Below the pieces are notes generated by a model. The model made no database searches. It had not been told where the DNA came from and saw nothing but the letters and a program-made list of their open reading frames with translations. Position numbers and translations under genes: made by a program. Below, piece by piece: positions 6,518 to 62,882 of a DNA stretch of 64,000 nucleotides (position 1 is the stretch's first letter; each line of letters begins with the position of its first letter). The stretch is from assembly GCF_044324785.1 (NCBI RefSeq), contig NZ_CP172127.1; one strand, 5' to 3'. Origin of the DNA: Escherichia coli. GTDB lineage: Bacteria > Pseudomonadota > Gammaproteobacteria > Enterobacterales > Enterobacteriaceae.

Positions 6518-7522
6518 TTAACGCGTTGCGGAAGTCGGCGTCTTCATGTAGCGGAAGAAATCGCTATCCGGGCTCATGACCATCACGTCCTGATTGCCAG
6601 AGAAGCTGTTCTCATAAGCACGCAGGCTACGGATAAATGCGTAGAAGTCCGGATCTTTACTGAATGCATCAGCAAACAGTTTGGCTGCTTCGGCATCGCC
6701 TTCACCACGCATGATGCGGCCCTGACGCTCAGCTTCTGCCAGCGTTCTGGTCACTTCATAGTCGGCAGTCGCACGCAGTTTTTCCGCTTCTTCCTGACCT
6801 TGTGAACGGTGACGACGCGCTACCGCTTCACGCTCGGCGCGCATACGGTTGTAGATCGCTTCAGACACTTCGGTCGGCAGGTTGATCTGCTTAATTCGCA
6901 CATCGACAACTTCAATACCCAGCGCCGCCATACTGTTCGGGTTGATGACCGGAACTTTACCCTTCGTCTCAGCCGTTACGCGCTCTGCCGCTTCGGCAAT
7001 GGCGTTATCTGCTGCCGGGGTAGTAACTTCATCTTCTGTACCCGCAGAACCGGAGTTCAGCGCGTCACGTACTTCGAGGGTCAGACGACCACGGGAATCG
7101 GTGACGATGTCTTTCACGTCCAGGCGACCAATTTCAGAACGCAGACGGTCAGAGAACTTACGTTTCAACAGCACTTCCGCTTGCGAAATGTCGCCACCGC
7201 CCGTTGCCAGGTAGTAACGGCTGAAATCGCTGATGCGCCATTTGATGTAAGAGTCGACGATCAGGTCTTTCTTCTCTTTGGTCACAAAGCGGTCGGCCTG
7301 GTTGTCCATGGTCTGAATACGTGCGTCGAGCATTTTCACCGTTTCAATGAACGGTATCTTGAAATGCAGACCCGGCTCATAAACCAGAGGTTTGTTGTCA
7401 TCGTCACGCAGTACCTTACCAAAACGCAGCGTAATACCGCGCTCACCTTCTTTGACGACAAAGACAGACATGTAAAGCACTACCAGCACGATGATGATAA
7501 TCGCGATAACTGACTTACGCAT
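6518..7522 (-). CDS. hflC: FtsH protease modulator HflC
   Basis: 334-aa SPFH/band-7 protein immediately downstream of hflK. Confidence 0.9.
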   Translation of the reverse strand: MRKSVIAIIIIVLVVLYMSVFVVKEGERGITLRFGKVLRDDDNKPLVYEPGLHFKIPFIETVKMLDARIQTMDNQADRFVTKEKKDLIVDSYIKWRISDFSRYYLATGGGDISQAEVLLKRKFSDRLRSEIGRLDVKDIVTDSRGRLTLEVRDALNSGSAGTEDEVTTPAADNAIAEAAERVTAETKGKVPVINPNSMAALGIEVVDVRIKQINLPTEVSEAIYNRMRAEREAVARRHRSQGQEEAEKLRATADYEVTRTLAEAERQGRIMRGEGDAEAAKLFADAFSKDPDFYAFIRSLRAYENSFSGNQDVMVMSPDSDFFRYMKTPTSATR

Positions 7523-57082: not shown

Positions 57083-57988
57083 CTATATTTCCAGACACCT
57101 GTTATCACTTAACCCATTACTGGTCCGCTGCCGCAGATATTCCCGTGGCGAGCGATAACCCAGCGCACTATGCGGATGCCATTCGTTATAATGCTCGAAC
57201 GCCTCTGCAAGGTTCTTTGCTGCCGTTAACCCGTCTGGTTTGGGCATGATACTGATGTAGTCACGCTTTATCGTTTTCACGAAGCTCTCTGCTATTCCGT
57301 TACTCTCCGGACTCCGCACCGCCGTGTTCTTCGGTTCAAGTCCCAACATCCGGGCGAACTGGCGTGTTTCATTAGCCCGGTAGCATGAACCATTATCCGT
57401 CAGCCACTCCACTGGAGACGACGGAAGATCGTTGCCGAAGCGGCGTTCCACCGCTCCTGGCATGACGTCCTGTACTGTTTCACTGTTGAAGCCGCCGGTA
57501 GTGACCGCCCAGTGCAGTGCCTCACGATCACAGCAGTCCAGCGCGAACGTGACACGCAGTCTCTCTCCGTTATCACAGCAGAACTCGAACCCGTCAGAGC
57601 ACCATCGCTGATTGCTTTCTTTCACGGCCACTCTGCCAGTATGTGCCCGTTTCGATGGCGGTACAGCGGTTTTTCGCTCAAGCAACAGCGCATTCTGGCG
57701 CATGATCCGGTAAACACGTTTGGCATTGATCGCAGGCATACCATCAAGTTCGGCCTGTCTGCGAAGCAGCGCCCATACCCGACGATAACCATACGTGGGC
57801 AGCTCTCCGATAACATGGTGTATACGGAGAAGCACATCCGTATCATCTGAGTGACGGCTGCGGCGACCATCTTTCCAGTCATCGGTTCGTCTGAGAATTA
57901 CGTGCAACTGCGCACGCGACACCCGGAGACAACGGCTGACTAAGCTTACTCCCCATCCCCGGGCAATAAGGGCGCGTGCGCTATCCAC
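57083..57988 (-). CDS. insD: IS2 transposase OrfB (InsD)
   Basis: 301-aa DDE transposase [30 protein letters not shown]. Confidence 0.92.
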
Positions 57989-58311
57989 TTTTTTGCACGC
58001 CCGTATTCAACGGCTTCTTTAAGGAGTTCATTTTCCATCGTTTTTTTGCCGAGCAGGCGCTGGAGTTCTTTAATCTGCTTCATGGCAGCAGCAAGTTCAG
58101 AGGCAGGAACGACCTGCTCTCCTGCGGCCACAGCAGTAAGACTTCCCTCCTGGTATTGCTTGCGCCAGAGAAATAACTGGCTGGCTGCCACACCGTGTTG
58201 CCGGGCAACAAGGGAGACCGTCATTCCCGGTTCAAAACTCTGCTGAACAATAGCGATCTTTTCCTGTGTAGTACGCCGTCTGCGTTTCTCCGGTCCTAAG
58301 ACATCAATCAT
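57946..58311 (-). CDS. insC: IS2 OrfA (InsC)
   Basis: Start [43 protein letters not shown] protein; 3' end overlaps insD in the programmed frameshift arrangement. Confidence 0.9.
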
Positions 58312-58562
58312 CTGCTCTCCAATGACTAGTCTAAAAACTAGTATTAAGACTATCACTTATTTAAGTGATATTGGTTGTCTGGAGATTCATGGGGCCAGTC
58401 TAGCAGATTATGGTGCGCAGTTATACAACAGCAGTAATGAGGAGTCTACTATTTCTCTTGTTATGCCAGATGCAATTGAATGGAACGGAAAGAATACGCC
58501 AAGACGGCAATACATGATAAAATATATTGCCGTATTTAAATATTAAAATTTATTTTTGTAGA

Positions 58563-58952
58563 TCATCTGAATTTTCGGTGACCTTCAAGTTTTATATCGT
58601 TCATTTTATCCAGAGACTCACGTAATGATTCTATATTCCCGTCCTCAACTTTCTTTTTTGCAATATTGATTTCATGTTGTAGTTTTTTTAACTCTTCCTT
58701 ATAACTATCTACAGAAACTTTATCATTAACATCTATCTTTTCAGGAATAATATTCATAGAAGAATCTACAGATTTATCCATCATTTCAAGAGCATTTAAT
58801 AGTGATGATTTATCATTGGAAGATTGTAGAATACTCATACTTTTGGCAAGAGACTGCATGTTTTTATCCAGGCCGGAAGCCAAAGATACGTTGCTGAGAG
58901 ATAAAAAAATAGCTAGTACAGCACCTGAGAAAAATACCTTTTGTTTTTTCAT
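58563..58952 (-). CDS. Secreted cytochrome b562-like four-helix-bundle protein (divergent CybC homolog)
   Basis: Start MKKQKVFFSGAVLAIFLSLSNVSLA (signal peptide); mature region aligns with cytochrome b562 including the Met heme ligand (SGLDKNM vs ADLEDNM) and C-terminal His (LEGHRKFR vs NAYHQKYR). Confidence 0.6.
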   Translation of the reverse strand: MKKQKVFFSGAVLAIFLSLSNVSLASGLDKNMQSLAKSMSILQSSNDKSSLLNALEMMDKSVDSSMNIIPEKIDVNDKVSVDSYKEELKKLQHEINIAKKKVEDGNIESLRESLDKMNDIKLEGHRKFR

Positions 58953-59368
58953 TAATATATTCCTGTTCAAAGTTGATTATAGTTATGTCAATTTAAGTTT
59001 ATTATTATGATTTTTTATTTTTGTACTATGAATCTCCTGTATGCTTATATGTGCAGAAAATCTCATTTTATCAAGAAGAATATCAAATTTTCTCCGATAC
59101 TTCTACATACTCCATCATTCATGCTCCTTTTATCCGTGCACCGTAAAACCCCGTCCTTCAGCGGGGGATATAAGGCGCTGTTTTCCACCTAACCAGGTGT
59201 CTGCTGCTATTCAATGTATTGGCGGATGACGGATGCCGCCCGTTGAAGCAGGACCCCTCGTCCTTAGGGCGTGGAGGATGTCAAAATGAAAACTTGTGGT
59301 ATGAATCAATCCATTCATCATCCTTTCGGATCATTGCATTCAGTATAACGCTGGGTAATGACTCCAAC

Positions 59369-59872
59369 TTATTGATAGTGTTTTATGTTCAGATAATGCC
59401 CGATGACTTTGTCATGCAGCTCCACCGATTTTGAGAACGACAGCGACTTCCGTCCCAGCCGTGCCAGGTGCTGCCTCAGATTCAGGTTATGCCGCTCAAT
59501 TCGCTGCGTATATCGCTTGCTGATTACGTGCAGCTTTCCCTTCAGGCGGGATTCATACAGCGGCCAGCCATCCGTCATCCATATCACCACGTCAAAGGGT
59601 GACAGCAGGCTCATAAGACGCCCCAGCGTCGCCATAGTGCGTTCACCGAATACGTGCGCAACAACCGTCTTCCGGAGACTGTCATACGCGTAAAACAGCC
59701 AGCGCTGGCGCGATTTAGCCCCGACATAGCCCCACTGTTCGTCCATTTCCGCGCAGACGATGACGTCACTGCCCGGCTGTATGCGCGAGGTTACCGACTG
59801 CGGCCTGAGTTTTTTAAGTGACGTAAAATCGTGTTGAGGCCAACGCCCATAATGCGTGCACTGGCACGACAT
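59369..59872 (-). CDS. insB: IS1 InsB
   Basis: 167 aa, [37 protein letters not shown]. Confidence 0.92.
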
Positions 59873-60066
59873 CCGACGCCATTCATGGCCATATCAATGA
59901 TTTTCTGGTGCGTACCGGGTTGAGAGGCGGTGTAAGTGAACTGTAGTTGCCATGTTTTACGGCAATGAGAGCAGAGATAGCGCTGATGTCCGGCAGTGCT
60001 TTTGCCGTTACGCACCACGCCTTCAGGAGCGGAGCAGGAAGGACATCTGATGGAAATGGAAGCCAC
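59791..60066 (-). CDS. insA: IS1 InsA
   Basis: 91 aa, [40 protein letters not shown]. Confidence 0.92.
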
Positions 60067-60329
60067 GCAAGCACCTTAAAATCACCATCATACACTAAAT
60101 CAGTAAGTTGGCACCATTACCTGACCAAGCTTCCTCTATTGCGGCACCTGATTGCATCAATATCGAAAGTGATAAGATCCTCTCACTAGCAGGGCATGAC
60201 AAGTGTAACTGCTGATTTGTTAGCCTGTTTTAAGTTTTTTAAGATCAATTATTTCTCATTTTTTGACTTTATTGCTAGCCGTGAAAATGCAAAGCCTATA
60301 GGATACAAAAATTACAATTTGTAGGTTTT

Positions 60330-60836
60330 GTGAGTCATATGAAGGCAACCAATATAGACCCTCAACTGCTTGAAAAAGCCACGAGTATCTTTGCTGAGTT
60401 GGGCTTACCTATTGAGCAGGCTATTAACGTCTTTTTAGCTAAATCCGTTCAAGCCAAAGGTTTTCCGTTTTCTGTTGCTCTTGAAAATGAAGTAGAGACA
60501 CGGGAAGTTGCACAAACGCAACACAATATCAGCAATGCAGAGATAACCGAAGCTATCCAAGACTTGGTTGAACATGCTCTACCACTGAGTGAAATAGAAA
60601 ACCTCACGCAGCTAACCTATTGTCGCAACATTTTTGGGTTGTCATTCCCCGTGCTCAAACTGGCTAAATCATCACGGCCAGAAGACATTCGCAGTGCAGC
60701 CAAAGATGCCAAAGAGCGAAACCGCTACTCCACCACTAAAGTGGCCCAGCGAGATGAAAAAACCTATGTTATTTGCACCCAATGGACCGACAGACATCGT
60801 TCTGCATTTTGCCGTTGGCAAGCCATCTTTAGCTAG
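60330..60836 (+). CDS. RelB/DinJ-like ribbon-helix-helix protein with an uncharacterised C-terminal extension
   Basis: N-terminal 50 aa (KATNIDPQLLEKATSIFAELGLPIEQAINVFLAKSVQAKGFPFSV) follow the DinJ pattern; the remaining 110 aa or so are unassigned; alternative ATG start at 60339; AT-rich; no toxin gene adjacent. Confidence 0.5.
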   Translation: MSHMKATNIDPQLLEKATSIFAELGLPIEQAINVFLAKSVQAKGFPFSVALENEVETREVAQTQHNISNAEITEAIQDLVEHALPLSEIENLTQLTYCRNIFGLSFPVLKLAKSSRPEDIRSAAKDAKERNRYSTTKVAQRDEKTYVICTQWTDRHRSAFCRWQAIFS

Positions 60837-60902
60837 AACGCAAAATAATAACCAAACAATACACTGATTTTTTAACGATTTAACTTCATTTAGGTAGTAT
60901 CA

Positions 60903-62882
60903 ATGAACTTACAAGACAAAGAACAAAGCGCCAAACTCTCCAGTGCTATTTGGCGTATGGCAGATGATTTATGGGGTGATTTCAAACACACCGATTTTGC
61001 GCGGATTATCCTGCCATTTTTGCTACTGCGTCGTATTGAATGCGTGTTAGAACCCACCCGTGAGGAAGTTCGTAAGTTCTATCTGGCCGAAAAACAATCC
61101 GGCATAGACCTTGGTTTAGTGTTGCCAGAAATTGCGGGATTCGCCTTTTACAACACCAGTGAATATAGCCTAGAAACCTTAGGCGCGTCAGACACCGGCG
61201 ACAACCTAGAACACTACATCAGCCAGTTCAGCAAAAACGTTCGTACCATCTTTGATGAGTTTAAATTTGGTCAAACCATAGAAGATCTGGAAAAAGCCAA
61301 GTTGCTGTATCGCATGGTAAACCATTTTGCCAACCTCGACTTGCATCCTGATGTAGTGTCTGACCGCGTATTATCAGATGCTTATGAAGAGCTGATTCTA
61401 AAGTTCGCCAGTTCGGTTAATGAAAAGGCCGGGGAATTTATGACCCCGCGTGATGCCGTGCGTCTTGCCACCAAACTGGTGCTGGCGGCGGATGAAGATA
61501 TCTTTAGTGAAAAGGGTGTGATCCGCACCATCTATGACCCAACCTGTGGCACGGGCGGTTTCCTTTCCGATGCCATTAGCCAAATTGAAGAAATGGGCAG
61601 CAGCGCTAAAGTCGTGCCTTTTGGTCAAGAGCTCGACCCCGCGACCCATGCCATGGCGCTGACCAATATGATGATCCGCGGTTTTGATGCCAATAACATC
61701 AAGCAAGGCAACACCTTATCAGACGATCAGTTACGTGCCGACAAGTTTCACTACGGCCTTGCCAACCCGCCATTTGGCATTAAGTGGGAAAAAGCCAAGA
61801 AAGAAGTAGAACGTGAGCACAAACAGCTCAAATACGCCGGACGCTTTGGGCCAGGCCTGCCGAGTATTTCTGATGGTTCAATGCTGTTTTTACTGCACTT
61901 GGTATCAAAAATGGAAACGCCGGAAAATGGTGGTGGCCGAGTGGGTATAGTCCTTTCTGGCTCGCCACTGTTTAATGGCGATGCAGGCTCAGGCCCATCA
62001 GAAATCCGCCGTTGGCTGCTAGAACAAGACTTAGTCGAAGCGATTGTTGCCCTGCCAACCGATATGTTCTTCAACACCGGCATTGGCACCTACATCTGGA
62101 TTTTGACTAACCATAAAGAGCCAAGACGCAAGAATCAGGTGCAACTGATTAACTTGGCAGATATTTGGACTCCCATGCGTAAATCGCAAGGCGATAAGCG
62201 CAAGTACCTGAGTGATGAACAGATTGACGATATTGTCCGTGCGTACGATGGCTTTGAAGCCAGTGACAACTGTAAGATCTTCCAGACTACTGATTTTGCC
62301 TACCGTAAAGTCACCATTCAGCGTCCACTGCGTGCCAAACTAGATATTACCGCTGCGGGCATTGCTGCATTTGTGCAGCAAGATACGTTTAAAAAACTCA
62401 AACCAGAGCAACAAGCGGCATGGGTACAATACCTCACCGATAACCTTGGCCTTCAGCCTTATGAATGGGCACGTTTGGCGGTTAAGAAGAATAACAATAA
62501 GGGTGACTTTGGTAAGTGCTCAAAAGCACTGGCTACGGCCTTAACTGCGCACTTTGTAAAAATTGATCCGCAATTTGAGCCTGCACTGGATGAAAAAGGC
62601 CAAGTGATCGCCGACCCTAAACTCAAAGACACCGAAAGCATTCCTTTTGACCGCGACGTTGAAGATTACTTCGCACAAGAGGTGCTGCCACATGTACCGG
62701 ATGCCTTTATTGATCACTCAGTGCGTGATGAAAAAGACGGCGAAGTGGGCATTGTCGGTTATGAAATTAACTTTAACCGCTATTTCTACCAATACGTGCC
62801 ACCACGCGAGTTGAGTGTGATTGATCGTGAGCTAAAAGCATGTGAAGCGCGCATTCAGGCTCTGCTGAATGAGGTGGCGTAA
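60903..62882 (+). CDS. hsdM: Type I restriction-modification N6-adenine DNA methyltransferase subunit HsdM
   Basis: 659 aa with AdoMet motif YDPTCGTGGFL and catalytic NPPFG; stop overlaps the hsdS start (TAATG). Confidence 0.88.
   Translation: MNLQDKEQSAKLSSAIWRMADDLWGDFKHTDFARIILPFLLLRRIECVLEPTREEVRKFYLAEKQSGIDLGLVLPEIAGFAFYNTSEYSLETLGASDTGDNLEHYISQFSKNVRTIFDEFKFGQTIEDLEKAKLLYRMVNHFANLDLHPDVVSDRVLSDAYEELILKFASSVNEKAGEFMTPRDAVRLATKLVLAADEDIFSEKGVIRTIYDPTCGTGGFLSDAISQIEEMGSSAKVVPFGQELDPATHAMALTNMMIRGFDANNIKQGNTLSDDQLRADKFHYGLANPPFGIKWEKAKKEVEREHKQLKYAGRFGPGLPSISDGSMLFLLHLVSKMETPENGGGRVGIVLSGSPLFNGDAGSGPSEIRRWLLEQDLVEAIVALPTDMFFNTGIGTYIWILTNHKEPRRKNQVQLINLADIWTPMRKSQGDKRKYLSDEQIDDIVRAYDGFEASDNCKIFQTTDFAYRKVTIQRPLRAKLDITAAGIAAFVQQDTFKKLKPEQQAAWVQYLTDNLGLQPYEWARLAVKKNNNKGDFGKCSKALATALTAHFVKIDPQFEPALDEKGQVIADPKLKDTESIPFDRDVEDYFAQEVLPHVPDAFIDHSVRDEKDGEVGIVGYEINFNRYFYQYVPPRELSVIDRELKACEARIQALLNEVA

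Follow-up and report, generated by a model that had tools for sequence, protein, structure and literature searches.

A RelB/DinJ-type ribbon-helix-helix protein with an undescribed C-terminal domain is a probable autorepressor at the head of diverse anti-phage defence operons

How defence islands are kept silent and how they are switched on is poorly understood, and few families of regulators have been characterised, among them the C proteins, BrxR/CapW, CapH/CapP and RptR. RptR, the RMS-proximal transcriptional regulator of EPEC E2348/69, is a four-helix dimer (PDB 9R2Z) that binds the sequence TAGCTA, represses a defence-island promoter and is found before type I restriction-modification (R-M) genes in many Gammaproteobacteria (PMC12255303). 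The WYL regulators BrxR and CapW combine a DNA-binding module with a second, sensor-like domain, lie at the edge of many defence systems and are thought to repress these systems until a cue appears (PMC9122601, PMC9122589, PMC9122588). The C proteins are small regulators at the head of type II R-M operons, where they time or limit expression by means of an Xre-type HTH that binds C-boxes. The RelB/DinJ antitoxins, such as that of DinJ-YafQ (PDB 4Q2U/4ML0), carry an N-terminal ribbon-helix-helix (RHH) module and autoregulate their operons through palindromes in the promoter. An RHH can also be joined to a folded regulatory domain, as in NikR, whose N-terminal RHH binds the operator and whose C-terminal domain modulates the RHH.

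The gene described here, which we call the leader gene, lies near the end of a 64-kb stretch of E. coli DNA (the window) and precedes hsdM and hsdS, the latter running past the window end (Table 1). The ORF at 60330–60836 (+), on which the first-pass annotation was based, is real, but its GTG start at 60330 is an in-frame alternative upstream of the ATG at 60339, where RefSeq starts the gene and where the N-termini of 34 homologues align, on MKAT... or MK.... The start is accordingly set at the ATG, and the GTG start proposed earlier adds three residues. The product is identical to WP_000648433.1, named “type II toxin-antitoxin system RelB/DinJ family antitoxin” in RefSeq. The same gene is annotated in 76 of 5,426 complete E. 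coli genomes in RefSeq, all with at least 99% identity, and the G+C content of the leader-gene module is 41–47%. The leader family is rare: among 100,044 species-representative genomes we detected six loci, a count bounded by the peptide patterns used in the scan; a metagenome scan added 11 loci, mostly short, and a scan of viral contigs returned none. A literature search found no publication on the protein family or on the accession WP_000648433.1.

Table 1. Features of the leader locus in the window (coordinates from the first nucleotide of the window; aa, amino acids)
Feature	Position	Strand	Basis
IS1, 768 bp	59354..60121	-	insA and insB ORFs; terminal repeats
Conserved module (putative promoter and operator) travelling with the leader gene	60246..60338	+	blastn
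TAGGAT, possible -10 hexamer	60299..60304	+	reading of upstream sequences
Putative operator, four half-sites in dyad symmetry	60304..60332	.	repeat and pattern searches
Leader gene, 165 aa	60339..60836	+	ORF list; RefSeq annotation; N-terminal alignment of homologues
RelB/DinJ-type ribbon-helix-helix, predicted DNA-binding and dimerisation module, residues 1–42	60339..60464	+	HMM/PDB matches, AF2 model
Acidic variable linker, predicted disordered, residues 43–62	60465..60524	+	pLDDT, alignment
Undescribed globular alpha/beta C-domain, residues 63–165	60525..60833	+	
Leader-hsdM spacer, 66 nt	60837..60902	+	terminator/promoter scan
hsdM, type I R-M methyltransferase, first cargo gene	60903..62882	+	PADLOC MTase_I E 1.9e-243; RefSeq annotation of identical locus

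The likeness of the N-terminus to RelB/DinJ proteins, suggested by the first-pass annotation, was borne out by database searches. This part of the protein matches NCBIfam TIGR02384 (RelB_DinJ) with E = 1.7e-10 and 41 bits, which is under the curated cutoff of 45.65, Pfam RelB with E = 4.6e-5, and the DinJ chains in a sequence search of the PDB with E = 0.011. An AlphaFold2 model built from 34 homologues places the two helices of the RHH at residues 8–20 and 25–40. The linker that follows has a pI of 4.5, a pLDDT below 50 over residues 43–60, and the lowest-conservation columns in the homologue alignment, with insertions and deletions.

The remainder of the protein, here termed the C-domain, is about 100 residues long and, modelled alone, forms a compact unit (pLDDT 90.8, pTM 0.82) with the element order H-H-H-E-H-E-E-H. 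Its conserved motifs are YC(R/K)xxFG..FPvLK, NRY(S/Y) and Y.iC(T/S)QWtdRHR..F.RW, and its second half is basic, the last 65 residues having a pI of 10.0 in the window and a family median of 9.4. The earlier statement that this region could not be assigned to any family also held, as residues ~63–165 of the leader protein of the window match nothing in Pfam, NCBIfam, PADLOC or PHROGs, and neither do the C-domains of 62 diverse relatives scanned singly against the same collections. A sequence-profile search of the PDB with the C-domain yielded nothing better than E = 0.1, the best match being the HNH-domain protein 9K32. Among PDB hits, SeqA is the one with the longest aligned stretch, 79 of 104 residues. 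The leader protein is similar to SeqA in layout, with a short N-terminal beta-alpha-alpha dimerisation module, a flexible linker and a C-terminal domain of the size and secondary-structure order of the ~110-residue DNA-binding domain of SeqA, although homology to that domain (PF03925) is unsupported. Pfam matches to DUF1413 and SeqA in fusion proteins were rejected as identifications of the C-domain, as both lie outside it and represent partner domains.

A profile of the C-domain retrieved 347 representative clusters at E ≤ 1e-3. Stand-alone proteins of about 100 residues are common. In proteins of 160–190 residues the domain stands behind RelB-type or other RHH, Phd/YefM or HTH_17 modules, and in larger proteins it is fused to HNH nucleases, to a McrB-like AAA_5 GTPase (in two copies at the N-terminus, where McrB proteins carry the DNA reader), and to KAP/QatA-like NTPases, TIR, Swt1-type HEPN, DUF3427, HSDR_N_2 and other partners. 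A sensor of conflict systems, or a module by which they read nucleic acid, would be expected to show this distribution, which is unlike that of a toxin or a toxin-binding tail. The McrB-like protein P0058 (935 aa) has two tandem N-terminal C-domains, and the fusion protein P0134 (550 aa) carries a weak SeqA-C-like segment (residues 154–193) beside its C-domain (residues 281–364).

An antitoxin-like N-terminus joined to a tail without assignable function could be taken for a single-chain toxin-antitoxin, in which the N-terminus restrains a toxic C-domain, and the first-pass annotation had offered this, or a fused effector, as one interpretation. The C-domain, however, resembles no toxin fold or family and shows no nuclease fold, nor did we see in it the catalytic motif of any known class of nuclease. 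Stand-alone C-domain proteins would be hard to tolerate if the domain were toxic, and its occurrence behind three other small DNA-binding modules likewise argues against the fusion, which we regard as scarcely credible.

The region upstream of the leader gene contains four half-sites in the arrangement TACAA-aaat-TACAA-t-TTGTA-ggtt-TTGTg, whose 3' end is 7 nt before the leader ATG and which includes a 13-nt inverted repeat at 60305–60331. The pattern TACAAN{3,4}TACAAN{1,2}TTGTA occurs once in the window compared with 0.00 occurrences expected by chance, and the site is the sole cluster in the window of at least three half-sites within 40 nt. Of 35 loci fetched, 30 have a pattern one base shorter at positions −35 to −17 relative to the start codon, regardless of the cargo; 34 of the 35 carry a relative of the leader and the set includes an unrelated seqA control locus, which is among the five loci without the pattern, together with variants that have other spacing. 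The hexamer TAGGAT abuts the first half-site in the window, and its counterparts in relatives are TAATAT, TAGTAT, TACTAT, TAAGAT, TAGCAT and GATGAT. A TAnnAT hexamer is present beside the first half-site in all subfamilies, and we read it as a possible −10 element. A simple consensus sigma-70 promoter scan of 60050–61000 reported no plus-strand promoter upstream of the leader gene, and in the leader-hsdM spacer the scan of the same segment reported neither a terminator nor a plus-strand promoter.

When nucleotides 59900–60900 were compared by blastn with six loci, DNA homology to the Vibrio, Shewanella, Dickeya and Pectobacterium loci started between 60246 and 60299. Because the homology begins only 40–90 nt upstream of the leader ATG, the promoter, the operator and the gene move as one unit. 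A 42-aa ORF at 60196–60324 (+) overlaps the promoter/operator region; it is not conserved elsewhere, the homology starting at 60246–60299, and is therefore probably not a gene. Rfam contains no RNA family that matches within 58–62 kb of the window.

The most probable explanation of these findings, in which we place somewhat better than even confidence, is that the leader protein is an autorepressor that controls the defence operon downstream and is carried as a portable cassette. This reading is based on the RHH homology, the unique operator-like repeat at a fixed position, the adjoining TAnnAT hexamer, the place of the gene as the first before varied cargo and the terminator-free spacer of 66 nt, and also on the tested precedent of RptR, a small repressor, unrelated to the leader, whose gene precedes hsdM in a defence island of E. 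coli (PMC12255303). The leader has the features expected of the class of defence-operon repressors in that it combines a DNA-binding module with an operator-like repeat and is repeatedly linked to defence systems of diverse kinds, with at least seven types of cargo. It is most likely a functional analogue of RptR, BrxR and the C proteins rather than an antitoxin, and it represents a new family within a known functional kind, with an undescribed domain.

The similarities to the described regulators are in arrangement and not in fold. RptR is, as the leader is proposed to be, a small dimeric repressor of its own promoter that acts through short sites, palindromic or repeated, and its gene, too, comes first, immediately before hsdM, in a defence island of E. 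coli. It differs in being an all-helical four-helix protein of ~80 residues with neither an RHH nor a second domain, both of which the leader has, and the cargo range of the leader family is wider than R-M. Neither RptR nor a 9R2Z chain appeared in the PDB sequence search with the leader protein at E ≤ 10. BrxR/CapW share with the leader the combination of a DNA-binding module with a second domain and the position beside defence genes, but the BrxR fold is wHTH + WYL + CTD and its gene is usually transcribed divergently; no wHTH or WYL match to the leader protein was found in Pfam. The C proteins of type II R-M systems are distinguished by their type of HTH, in contrast to the RHH and extra domain of the leader, and the cargo of the leader includes type I or type III-like R-M and also systems other than R-M. 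The leader is homologous to RelB/DinJ antitoxins in its RHH but is twice as long. With NikR and other RHH regulators that have an appended regulatory domain it shares the same design principle.

Full-length homologues with 50–90% identity were found in Vibrio, Photobacterium, Shewanella, Aeromonas, Dickeya, Pectobacterium and Lonsdalea, and in every context recovered the homologue opens the defence block and shares its strand. Genes after the leader match known or candidate defence families in nearly every locus seen. Behind the close homologues PADLOC or Pfam identified at least five unrelated kinds of defence, with two more behind distant RelB-type relatives. In E. coli and in the Vibrio trmE-type islands the cargo consists of hsdM-S-R followed by KwaA/KwaB-like genes and RhuM (PADLOC PDC-S05), adjoining mobI. 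In Shewanella, where the preceding ORFs look like cas genes of a type I-F CRISPR-associated transposon, a different hsdM follows the leader. In Vibrio, Photobacterium, Lonsdalea, Shewanella and metagenomes the leader precedes SNF2-DUF4391-N6_N4 methylase-(AAA_21-DUF4276)-Res, the leader and the first cargo gene either overlapping at their stop and start codons or lying 2–14 nt apart. The Aeromonas locus, between nuoN and purL, has HEC-03B/HEC-03A and an RNA ligase; that of Parashewanella has PDC-S06 and then the PtuA/PDC-M01 pair (a PtuA-like Septu pair); and those of Dickeya and Pectobacterium have RhuM alone. The more distant RHH-plus-C-domain proteins, with 37–49% identity in the C-domain, precede PDC-S41 or a type II methylase. 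The spacer between leader and cargo ranges in relatives from a 1-nt overlap to 520 nt, and the gaps of 394 and 520 nt in two contexts mean that co-transcription of leader and cargo is not assured everywhere. The earlier suggestion of a controller of the R-M module is thus supported, as to control, by the conserved operator at a fixed distance, but it was too narrow as to cargo, which is not only hsdM-hsdS.

Beyond the end of the window, hsdR is followed in the islands of E. coli and Vibrio (L001:19305-20701 and L035:15052-16454) by genes for two proteins annotated as hypothetical, of 184 and 280 aa, which match Kiwa KwaA and KwaB (PADLOC, E = 4.7e-17 and 4.2e-13, respectively), and the operon therefore comprises type I R-M, Kiwa-like and RhuM genes and not R-M alone. 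RhuM is 85–87% identical among E. coli, Dickeya and Pectobacterium (L001:20737-21771, L003:8595-9629 and L026:10941-11966, respectively) and lies directly 3' of the leader in the latter two genera and 9 kb downstream in E. coli. It looks as if R-M and Kiwa had been gained or lost between a leader and a RhuM that both stayed in place, the two bracketing a cargo slot.

The recurrence of RhuM raises the question of whether the leader is what its RefSeq name says, a true type II antitoxin, with a toxin that is either a downstream defence protein such as RhuM/PDC-S05 or a canonical RelE/YafQ protein since lost. RHH antitoxins do autoregulate their operons, RhuM directly follows the leader in two genera, and the same RhuM closes the operon in E. 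coli and also ends it in Vibrio. However, RhuM is missing in Aeromonas and Parashewanella, at whose loci the complete cassette can be seen, and no RelE/YafQ/ParE-type toxin gene was found beside the leader in any of ~14 distinct homologous contexts. In the window, the flanks are as the first-pass annotation had given them, IS1 on one side and hsdM 66 nt away on the other, with no RelE/YafQ-like ORF in the ORF list on either side of the leader gene. The possibility raised there that homologues are paired with a canonical toxin, lost here through IS1, finds no counterpart in any of the contexts. The insertion is 125 nt upstream of the conserved promoter module, a position inconsistent with loss of a gene between that module and the leader gene, and the Vibrio islands L030 and L035, which have no IS1, still have no toxin gene adjoining the leader. 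This indicates that IS1 did not remove a partner gene; the element is not part of the leader system. The tail is not a toxin-binding peptide of the DinJ type, as the earlier annotation had also considered, but a stable globular domain (pLDDT 91) of 100 residues in place of an extended toxin-wrapping peptide, and the C-domain is also found alone and on effectors. The leader thus lacks two features that define RelB/DinJ antitoxins, the partner toxin and the disordered toxin-binding tail, and we consider an antitoxin role quite improbable.

The fusions of the C-domain to effectors, the stand-alone proteins and the basic surface are also consistent with a different role, in which the leader would not be a transcription factor but a trans-acting sensor or specificity subunit whose C-domain recognises invading nucleic acid and signals to the downstream enzymes, as it would in cis within its fusions to HNH, McrB-like, TIR or KAP NTPase effectors. 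One family with 50–90% identity would then have to cooperate with cargo as unrelated as type I R-M, HEC-03, PDC-S06 and RhuM, and since these are mechanistically unrelated, control of transcription fits better than protein–protein signalling. The palindrome at a fixed position before the leader's own start codon is, moreover, a hallmark of an autoregulated DNA-binding protein. A role as a sensor subunit is on these grounds unlikely.

These considerations lead us to propose that the leader, as a dimeric RHH protein, would bind the four-half-site TACAA/TTGTA operator just before its own start codon, and that this binding would control transcription of the leader itself and of the defence operon behind it, which in the window would be hsdM-hsdS-hsdR, to which full-length copies of the island add the Kiwa-like pair and RhuM. 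The promoter, operator and leader gene would together act as a portable control cassette before interchangeable anti-phage cargo. The C-domain is a separate basic module, most likely nucleic-acid-binding, that may either make further contacts, at the outer half-sites, or respond to a sign of infection, for example foreign DNA, and so lift the repression. It is also conceivable that the antitoxin-like N-terminus and the disordered linker make the leader short-lived, in which case repression would decay when host translation is shut off.

Which of the two domains would read the half-sites can be considered in the light of relatives with other N-terminal modules. The 100-nt upstream regions of 15 lineage representatives contain 42 TTGTA/TACAA 5-mers compared with 5.8 expected, and the enrichment includes some Phd-type relatives and one HTH_17-type relative; two Phd-type loci have no such motif. 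A motif common to Phd-, HTH_17- and RHH-type relatives would, on its face, point to the shared C-domain as the reader. YefM operators, however, centre on TGTACA (PMC1802561), and a canonical DinJ-YafQ-like pair located 1.5 kb upstream of the leader gene in locus L031 (5985-6570, minus strand) carries at the promoter (6532-6570) a TTGTA/TACAA half-site cluster of its own, so that RelB/DinJ-type RHH domains may share this half-site preference. For both reasons we downgraded the C-domain as the reader of the half-sites. It would be a bolder conjecture, which we advance tentatively and with more doubt than confidence, that the C-domain is a new sequence-reading DNA-binding or nucleic-acid-sensing fold used in two ways: on small dimerising modules (RelB-RHH, Phd/YefM, HTH_17) it would form infection-responsive switches that hold defence operons off, and on HNH, McrB-like, TIR, HEPN and KAP NTPase effectors it would aim the protein at foreign DNA, with the half-sites read by the C-domain in a SeqA-like “dimer with two tethered readers”.

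The places where the leader is found bear on a further possibility, that it serves a mobile element, for instance as a recombination-directionality or maintenance factor by which MGIVchHai6-like islands and Tn7-like elements would mark the boundary of their cargo slot. In E. coli and Vibrio the leader lies in mobI-bearing trmE-type islands, and MGIVchHai6-like trmE-specific islands with type I R-M and RhuM beside mobI were described earlier (PMC7449626); that paper does not discuss the leader gene, and the words “antitoxin” and “RelB” do not occur in it. One copy comes behind what look like the cas genes of a type I-F CRISPR-associated transposon, some relatives have an excisionase-like HTH_17 module and one adjoins an integrase. 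By contrast, the copies in Aeromonas (L007:8001-11239, between nuoN and purL) and Dickeya (L003:8001-9629, between pfkB-like and peptidase M16 genes) are embedded among housekeeping genes, and the 16 kb around them (8 kb to each side) contain neither an integrase nor a transposase. The sole constant neighbour of the leader is the defence cargo downstream on the same strand. There is in our view only a very slight chance that the leader acts for the mobile element.

If the leader is an autorepressor, it adds another family to the regulators of defence systems, and a systematic misannotation would be corrected, as the RefSeq and UniRef entries of homologues that we saw read “addiction module antitoxin”. 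It would also provide a compact promoter-operator-repressor cassette with interchangeable cargo, present in mobilisable islands of the trmE type, in an apparent CRISPR-associated transposon and in integrase-free islets. The C-domain, with its 347 representative clusters, would become a marker of defence genes and a candidate for a new nucleic-acid reader, and the leader gene could be used to predict candidate defence systems.

Several neighbouring features of these loci are of interest in their own right. In an uncultured Shewanella (L032:3305-7346) the leader and hsdM come just after ORFs that resemble, when judged by eye from the sequences, a TniQ-related protein and Cas6f; if this reading is right, the leader-hsdM pair starts the cargo of a type I-F CRISPR-associated Tn7-like transposon. 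TniQ/Cas6f-like ORFs are also located upstream of the leader in L034, in the opposite orientation. In Vibrio (L004 and L011-L014:1371-7879) a BrxR (WYL) gene divergent from a Wadjet (MksBEF/JetD) operon lies immediately upstream of the leader and its SNF2-DUF4391-methylase-Res operon, so that two families of regulators, BrxR and the leader, head adjacent defence operons in one island. In the window itself, the segments 57083–58356 (−) and 58563–58970 (−) lie close upstream of the defence module; the latter is an AT-rich (29% G+C) ORF of 135 aa, annotated as cytochrome b562 in the identical RefSeq locus, with IS2 and IS1 on its two sides, and appears to have been stranded there by the two elements.
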